From the IMG/VR virus record IMGVR_UViG_2690316311_000023: a stretch of 4,126 nt of DNA. One strand, given 5' to 3'. This document shows positions 840 to 2,030 of this stretch, piece after piece. The position numbers and the translations under genes were made by a program. The DNA is from a virus. Its lineage: Duplodnaviria > Heunggongvirae > Uroviricota > Caudoviricetes. How positions within the stretch are numbered: the stretch's first letter is position 1; each line of letters opens with the position of its first letter. The notes under the pieces were generated by a model. It made no database searches. It saw only the letters and a list, made by a program, of their open reading frames with translations, and was not told the origin of the DNA.

Positions 840-2030
840 TTATATAGCTGGTGACTCTTTTCGAAGAGCATCAAGGTAGTCAGCGTACCATTGCATCATT
901 TCTCGTCTTCCTTCAAGGTAACGAGCATGGTTGTATGTACCACGAATGCTGTTTTTGTCCGTATGTGCAAGTTGCATTTCAATCCATGCACTATTGAATC
1001 CTTGCTCGTGTAGAACAGTACTCATTGTATGACGAAATCCATGCCCGGTAGCTTTTTTGTCATAGCCAATCTTCTTCAAAACCATATTGACGCTTGCATC
1101 GCTGATAGGCCTGTTAACATCATTTCTTCCGGCAAAGATGTATCTGTATCTTCCAGTCAGTTCTTTGAGGATTTGCAGAGACTGGATTGCCTGATCTGAC
1201 AGAGGGACGATATGCTCCTTCCTCATTTTCATCCGGGTCGGAGGAACTTCCCATATCTTTTGGGTAAAATCGATCTCACACCATTCCCCCATACGTAATT
1301 CTACTGTTCTCAGCCCTGTGAGCATCAACAATTTTGTAGCTTCACGGGTTACAATACTGCCGGTTTAGTTTTCGAGTTTGTATAAAAACTCTGGTAGTTC
1401 AGGAGGAAGCAGGAAAGGGTAATGTGTTCGCTTATAGCTTTTCATTGCTATAACCAGATCAGAAGCTGGATTGTATCGTGCCCGACCTGTAACAATGGCA
1501 TACCGAAACACTTCACCACATCGTTGGCGAACTTTATTAGCTAGCTCGCAGGCTCCTCGGCTTTCGATACGCTGAAGAACTGCGAGAAGTTCAAGAGGTT
1601 CGATTTCACTAATGGGTCTGTTTCCAATGTAGGGAAACACATTATTTTTGAATGCTCTGTCGACATAATCAGCGTAGCTGGCAGACCAGCCTGAAACTTT
1701 TGCGTTGTACCACTCGGTGGCGATTGCGGCAAAAGTTCTTCCTTCGGAAAGGTTTTTCTCAAGATTTTCAGCTTTCTTGACTTCACCGGGATCTTTACCA
1801 TCGGCATGTATTTTCTTGGCTTCATCCCGACGTTTGCGAGCTTCAGCCAATGTAATAGTTGGATAGGTGCCAAATGATAGTTTCTTTTCCTTCCCCGCAT
1901 AGTGGTACTTCATTCGCCAGTACTTTGAGCCGTTAGGATTGACCTGAAGGTAGAGCCCACCACCATCGGCAATCTTATAAATTTTATCTTTGGGTTTGGC
2001 TGTTTCAACTTGTCGAGCTGTCAGTGGCAT
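840..2030 (-). pseudogene. int: P4-family tyrosine recombinase (phage integrase) interrupted by one in-frame TAA stop; both domains otherwise intact
   Basis: Track ORFs 1365..2057 and 840..1331 are in the same frame. The N-terminal part (MPLTARQVETAKPKDKIYKIADGGGLYLQVNPNGSKYWRMKY...) matches the DUF4102 arm-binding domain typical of P4/CP4-57-type integrases. The C-terminal part carries catalytic-domain motifs (LTGLRTVELR, HGFRHT, RGTYNHARY, REMMQWYADYL). Translating across the gap gives ...KLEN-stop-TGSIVTREATKLL-MLTGLRT..., with the stop at plus 1365-1367 (tta). The likely true start is the ATG at 2028-2030 (MPLTARQ...), preceded by GAGG; the track's upstream start at 2057 is a TTG. Confidence 0.8.

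Follow-up and report, generated by a model that had tools for sequence, protein, structure and literature searches.

A one-base nonsense codon very probably inactivates the integrase of an argW genomic island in tandem with an Sf6-like prophage in O26-type Escherichia coli

The window analyzed here, a 4,126-nt stretch of DNA from the virus record IMGVR_UViG_2690316311_000023, carries an integrase reading frame that is interrupted by one in-frame stop codon. The excisionase gene torI and the end of an insertion sequence lie to its right. The locus raises the questions of how the stop codon arose, whether it disables the integrase and which mobile element the integrase serves. Inactivation of island integrases by nonsense mutations is common in E. 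coli. Public annotation already marks this pseudogene, and what is corrected here is its assignment to an element; a literature search found papers on KplE1, IntS and TorI and no published description of this particular pseudogene. We hold with high confidence that a one-base nonsense mutation at Tyr222 inactivates the integrase of a separate argW island that stands in tandem with a phage. The features of the window are collected in Table 1.

Table 1. Features of the 4,126-nt window (positions are those of the window; a dot marks a feature with no strand).
Feature	Position	Strand	Details and source
Island DNA past the end of int, AT-rich with 25-31% G+C	1..839	.	Lacks any ORF of at least 40 aa; runs on into the island in O26 11368
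Integrase pseudogene of the argW genomic island	840..2030	-	396 codons, internal TAA at codon 222; translation, Pfam, RefSeq
Catalytic part, now untranslated	840..1364	-	GLR241, H330-G-F-R333, LAH356 and GTY366 motifs
Nonsense codon TAA, codon 222	1365..1367	-	TAC (Tyr) in intact alleles; G to T at 1365 on the + strand
Part still translatable, 221 aa	1368..2030	-	Arm-type DNA-binding (3-88) and core-binding/SAM-like (100-193) domains; Pfam, PDB sequence matches
Integrase-proximal arm of the island att site and int upstream region	2031..2205	.	Base for base as in genomes where the arm abuts argW
att core CTGCAGGGGACACCA, 3' end of tRNA-Arg argW; prophage/island junction	2206..2220	-	
Right end of a separate Sf6/P22-like prophage	2221..4000	-	Outside the island; also has two small hypothetical genes; RefSeq features, phage identity
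torI/xis	2294-2494	-	RefSeq
DUF4752 gene	3212-3490	-	RefSeq
DUF551 gene	Cut at 4000	-	RefSeq
IS600 left end, within the DUF551 gene of the phage	4001..4126	+	Divergence from O26 11368; annotation in matching records

Results

The integrase frame is interrupted at a single codon

Translation of the minus strand from 2030 to 840 gives 396 codons followed by the terminal stop, and the sole internal stop is codon 222, a TAA at 1367-1365 that reads TTA on the plus strand. The open reading frames on either side of it (1365..2057 and 840..1331, minus strand) share one frame. Pfam analysis of the read-through protein identified Arm-DNA-bind_3 (DUF4102, PF13356) at residues 3-88 (E = 3.7e-28), the central core-binding (SAM-like) domain Phage_int_M (PF22022) at residues 100-193 (E = 1.3e-33) and the C-terminal catalytic domain Phage_integrase (PF00589) at residues 207-371 (E = 1.8e-26). 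All three matches are far above chance level. Sequence matches to the PDB cover the core-binding part, which is similar to the core-binding domain of the putative prophage CPS-53 integrase (2kj8, E = 7e-34), and the N-terminal part, which matches a phage integrase arm domain (3ju0) and the arm domain of a CP4-like integrase (3jtz). The initial annotation had described an integrase with both domain parts in one frame and a single TAA at 1365-1367, and translation and Pfam bear this out. It had also placed the split between the domains; the two parts do share a frame, but the TAA falls 15 residues within the Pfam catalytic-domain match and not exactly at the domain border.

Every recognizable catalytic motif (GLR241, HGFR333, LAH356 and GTY366) lies downstream of the TAA and is conserved in the alignment with IntS. 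As in the tyrosine-recombinase family generally, these motifs are taken to hold the catalytic residues. The gene has the arm-binding and core-binding domains and a catalytic domain with the R, H-x-x-R, H and Y motifs, which together point to a P4/CP4-like tyrosine integrase by descent. A functional integrase has its DNA-binding and catalytic domains joined in a single uninterrupted frame; here the TAA breaks that frame, and RefSeq flags the gene as a pseudogene.

Intact alleles carry a tyrosine codon, and the stop allele is widespread

Uninterrupted alleles, which the initial annotation had suggested looking for in related strains, are present in FDAARGOS_536 and in ATCC 8739. The FDAARGOS_536 allele (WP_001131472.1) differs from the window at one of 1221 nt: position 1365 is G in place of T, which makes codon 222 TAC. 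There are no other differences across the 1191 nt of coding sequence, and the two alleles agree at every base of the upstream region and of the first 221 codons. The ATCC 8739 allele (WP_001131474.1) is 96.5% identical, with 42 nucleotide differences, and also has TAC at codon 222. The earlier guesses of a tyrosine codon, a one-nucleotide change and no further decay of the gene were all correct. The codon differences between the ATCC 8739 allele and the window comprise 31 synonymous and 11 non-synonymous changes, a pattern that would be expected from purifying selection on intact alleles. The window allele has zero further substitutions, so its sequence alone gives no sign of relaxed selection.

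A search of 5426 complete genomes with the 61-mer centered on the stop found the exact sequence in 79 of them, and 191 others have a variant that differs at one or two positions; codon 222 was read directly in only two of the variant alleles, those of FDAARGOS_536 and ATCC 8739, and is TAC in both. Among the carriers listed for the exact 61-mer are isolates of cattle, human, veal and creek origin. Positions 840-2060 of the window are 100% identical in many complete O26, O111:H11 and O103 E. coli genomes, and positions 1-4000 are 100% identical to the O26:H11 11368 reference. The RefSeq gene ECO26_RS35390 (tyrosine-type recombinase/integrase, internal stop) has coordinates identical to those of the pseudogene, and the PGAP 'internal stop' flag is set in two separate assemblies (NC_013361.1 and NZ_CP028112.1). 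At least 79 sequenced genomes form a group in which the stop allele is fixed, and the inactivation, which had been called recent, is recent in a relative sense only. In a few O26-type strains IS600 sits inside the dead integrase and splits the gene into two annotated pieces, as in NZ_CP074982.1 (H87; at about window position 1027) and also in H101-H103. These insertions are secondary decay of the dead gene, which fits relaxed selection.

An argW core separates the integrase from torI

The sequence upstream of int in the window is unchanged up to ...ATGGTGTCCCCTGCAG at 2205-2220, the last 15 nt of argW. Beyond this core the window switches to different DNA that bears torI. The tRNA and Rfam scans of the window returned no match, and of argW the last 15 nt alone are present. 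The 15-nt core matches the published 16-nt core of KplE1, CTGCAGGGGACACCAT (PMC2951348). In the genomes with an intact allele, int starts 175 nt from tRNA-Arg argW, adjoining yfdC, and island DNA follows downstream of int.

The core is present in three copies in O26 11368, at argW, at the window position and at the far end of the island. The order of the locus is yfdC, argW with core 1, an intact intS (385 aa), a 40.7-kb P22/Sf6-like prophage ending in torI, core 2 (the core in the window), the pseudo-integrase, the 26.7-kb island, core 3, the csc sucrose genes and dsdA. Both island cores are exact and lie 26,692 bp apart, at 854-868 and 27546-27560 of the O26 11368 locus (L004), where about 0.09 chance matches are expected. 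The element therefore has direct repeats of the argW 3' end at both borders, as an argW integrative element does. In these O26-type pathogenic E. coli a genomic island occupies the argW tRNA gene, and the layout assigns the pseudogene to the island on the left of the core and not to the prophage or the insertion sequence on the right.

No integrase in a collection of sequenced phages shares more than 49% identity with that of the window, whereas DNA on the torI side matches phages Kapi1, Sf6 and IME10 and their relatives at about 95-97.5% identity. Because of this difference, and because an argW core lies between the two genes, the adjacency of int and torI is a by-product of two tandem elements at one tRNA gene that mimics an int-xis module. 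In a KplE1/Sf6-type IntS-TorI module both genes are part of a single element, in which they flank the attP and so come to lie at opposite prophage ends; the int-torI pair of the window does not have this arrangement.

The stop allele also adjoins argW in genomes without the phage (RM8385, which is O103, and 2014C-3050), and 66 genomes contain the phage-island junction compared with 79 that contain the stop. The IS600 insertion of the window is missing from most stop-allele genomes. Since the stop allele occurs both without the phage and without the insertion sequence, and since the junction and the stop differ in their counts, the nonsense mutation, the phage and the insertion sequence are independent events. 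The initial annotation had tied the dead integrase to the nearby insertion sequence as parts of a single element. That link does not hold, as the argW core at 2206-2220 stands between them and IS600 interrupts a gene of the prophage.

The island and the arm of its att site

The island is about 26.7 kb long and CP4-like, and its cargo comprises a PapB-like regulator, IS3 and IS66 copies, an HsdR-N protein, Ag43, DUF932, KlcA, RadC and YeeU. A tblastn search from torI across the island to about 18 kb past the far core found no second copy of the island integrase. The island ends directly after the gene for the YeeU-family antitoxin, and no toxin gene is annotated before the att core (L004 27053-27560). 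Past the far core are the csc sucrose-utilization genes and then a truncated dsdX. The far end of the island appears to be eroded or rearranged. The AT-rich stretch of 839 nt downstream of int contains a strong terminator-like hairpin at 171..151 on the minus strand.

The sequence AT(T/C)T(G/A)GGGGC occurs in three copies within 56 nt (2029-2084), two direct and one inverted, and these overlap the integrase start codon. They are candidate arm-type or operator sites. The motif ATTTRGGGGC was dropped as evidence; it is no commoner over the 46-kb locus than expected by chance, and it is absent from the far arm of the island. A consensus promoter scan of the int upstream region (2031-2205) detected no promoter-like site, a result with no bearing on expression. 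A 24-nt block, GAAATCTACC(A/T)T(C)ACCCC..AAAA, recurs at offset +14 to the right of both island cores (L004 882-905 and 27574-27598; about 2169-2192 in the window). This block could be a conserved site for protein binding, or the trace of an older element. A remnant of a third integrase was sought to the right of the far core, but tblastn detected the island integrase gene alone, and the similar 24-nt block is all that is found there.

The neighboring prophage and IS600

The prophage is Sf6/P22-like, about 41 kb long, and has its own intact IntS (385 aa) at its far end beside argW, about 40 kb away. The window follows O26 11368 through base 4000 and diverges from 4001, and matching records annotate an 'IS3-like element IS600 family transposase' there. 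Two exact TATTTTACCC repeats, 12 nt apart, are located on the phage arm at 2278-2299, where they overlap the 3' end of torI. Similar repeats of the GGGTAAAA type lie between argW and the phage intS (locus L003). The TATTTTACCC repeats are probably arm-type sites for IntS, and they are not present in the island arm (2031-2205).

The sequence TTGCAGGTTCGATTCC at 2514-2529 on the minus strand exactly duplicates the 16 nt of argW that directly precede the att core on its 5' side. Read in the sense of the tRNA, the phage end has the order T-arm fragment, torI, core, which places torI between two argW-like pieces. The 16-nt copy may be the relic of a longer tRNA-derived attP.

Discussion

Consequences of the stop codon for the island

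In the mechanism that we propose, the third base of the Tyr222 codon changed from C to A on the coding strand (TAC to TAA), and translation of the island integrase, a tyrosine integrase of the P4/CP4 type with argW specificity, ends after 221 residues. The 221-residue product would keep the arm- and core-binding domains and lack Arg241, His330, Arg333, His356 and Tyr366, so that it could not cut or rejoin DNA. From its domain content it should still bind DNA and be incapable of strand exchange. As the truncated product is without every catalytic residue, self-excision of the island is most likely lost. The initial annotation had concluded that the element cannot excise by itself, which is a sound reading of a pseudogene product that lacks the catalytic domain. 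The island, with two intact argW cores and no other integrase, is most likely locked in the chromosome of the TAA strains. A related integrase elsewhere, or the 48%-identical IntS that uses the same core, might act on the island in trans; simple cross-complementation by IntS would be disfavored because the TATTTTACCC repeats are in the phage arm and not in the island arm.

We infer that an Sf6-like phage with the same core inserted between argW and the island, either later than the mutation or independently of it, and this would have placed torI beside the dead integrase. The phage itself should be unaffected, as it has its own intact IntS and TorI. The case shows that two elements in tandem beside a tRNA gene can pass for one int-xis module. 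The argW island of these Shiga-toxin-type E. coli is probably fixed in place, whereas the neighboring prophage retains working recombination genes of its own. The distinction could be used to predict which mobile elements in these pathogens still move; otherwise its use lies in correct annotation.

Alternative explanations

An intact gene that only appears to be broken through a sequencing or assembly error, which the initial annotation had kept as an option, has a negligible probability. Nothing was found in its favor, and it would have to account for an identical 61-mer in 79 complete genomes from varied isolates, for the exact agreement of positions 1-4000 with the 11368 reference and for the PGAP flags in two assemblies. 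Scarcely more probable is a natural or programmed split in which two polypeptides are made separately or the stop codon is read through in a regulated manner. The undamaged state of both halves would suit such an arrangement, as would the TTG/ATG-initiated frame of 163 aa (840..1331) downstream of the stop, but no Shine-Dalgarno-like motif precedes the internal ATG on the coding strand, the stop context TAA-A has no known recoding signal and Rfam is silent over the window. Most carriers have the variant 61-mer, and the two alleles that were read directly continue with Tyr222. Homologues that naturally end at the stop had been named as a finding that would speak for a split; instead the alignment with IntS is continuous through codon 222.

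The integrase could also be that of the torI-bearing phage itself, in a lambda-like int-xis module, which would make the phage the immobilized element and one also hit by IS600. The order of int, a 263-nt gap, torI and early phage genes on one strand does resemble a lambda-type module. We nevertheless regard this reading as very unlikely, since the argW att core separates int from torI, genomes without any phage have an identical sequence left of the core, no integrase of the phage collection exceeds 49% identity, and the 385-aa intS of the phage lies at its other end by argW, as in the layout of KplE1 (PMC2951348). A nonsense origin of the truncation in the island integrase is compatible with a further proposal, that the 221-aa fragment is expressed and has been kept. 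It would act as an arm-site repressor of the int promoter or as a dominant-negative protein at the argW att sites, and so stabilize the island or modulate related elements or the Sf6-like prophage in O26, O111 and O103 strains. The identity of the upstream region and first 221 codons to the intact allele and the presence of the allele in at least 79 genomes agree with retention, and autorepression is known for IntS, which acts on its own promoter by way of arm-type sites overlapping attL (PMC2951348). On the other side, IS600 further disrupts the gene in some strains, nothing promoter-like was detected upstream of int by the consensus scan, and clonal inheritance suffices to explain the 79 genomes. 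Retention of the fragment is a very unlikely addition.

Comparison with related integrases and islands

The closest relatives of the pseudogene are the FDAARGOS_536 and ATCC 8739 alleles, which occupy the same locus 175 nt from argW, encode 396 aa and have the same upstream arm (1220 of 1221 nt and 96.5% identity, respectively). They differ from the window in having TAC (Tyr222) in place of TAA, and the ATCC 8739 island carries other cargo downstream of int. The IntS systems of KplE1/CPS-53 and of Sf6/HK620-type phages, in which TorI is the excisionase, share the integrase architecture and the core CTGCAGGGGACACCA(T) at the 3' end of argW; their int likewise reads away from the tRNA gene, and its upstream region lies within the att arm. 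In contrast, IntS has only 48% protein identity to the island integrase, the TATTTTACCC repeats of the phage arm are absent from the island arm, and the island itself lacks a torI, the neighboring copy being that of the phage. In KplE1, intS and torI are at opposite ends of the prophage, and the module has been termed highly conserved in Sf6 and HK620 (PMC2951348).

The island shares with CP4-type islands of E. coli a tRNA-adjacent integrase with Arm-DNA-bind_3 (DUF4102) and a cargo of Ag43, DUF932, KlcA antirestriction, RadC/JAB, DUF987 and YeeU. The argW island would resemble the K-12 elements CP4-44 and CP4-57, which have P4-like integrases. It differs from CP4-type islands in its position at argW and in the nonsense codon of its integrase, and it is heavily colonized by IS3 and IS66, with its YeeU end truncated at the att core.
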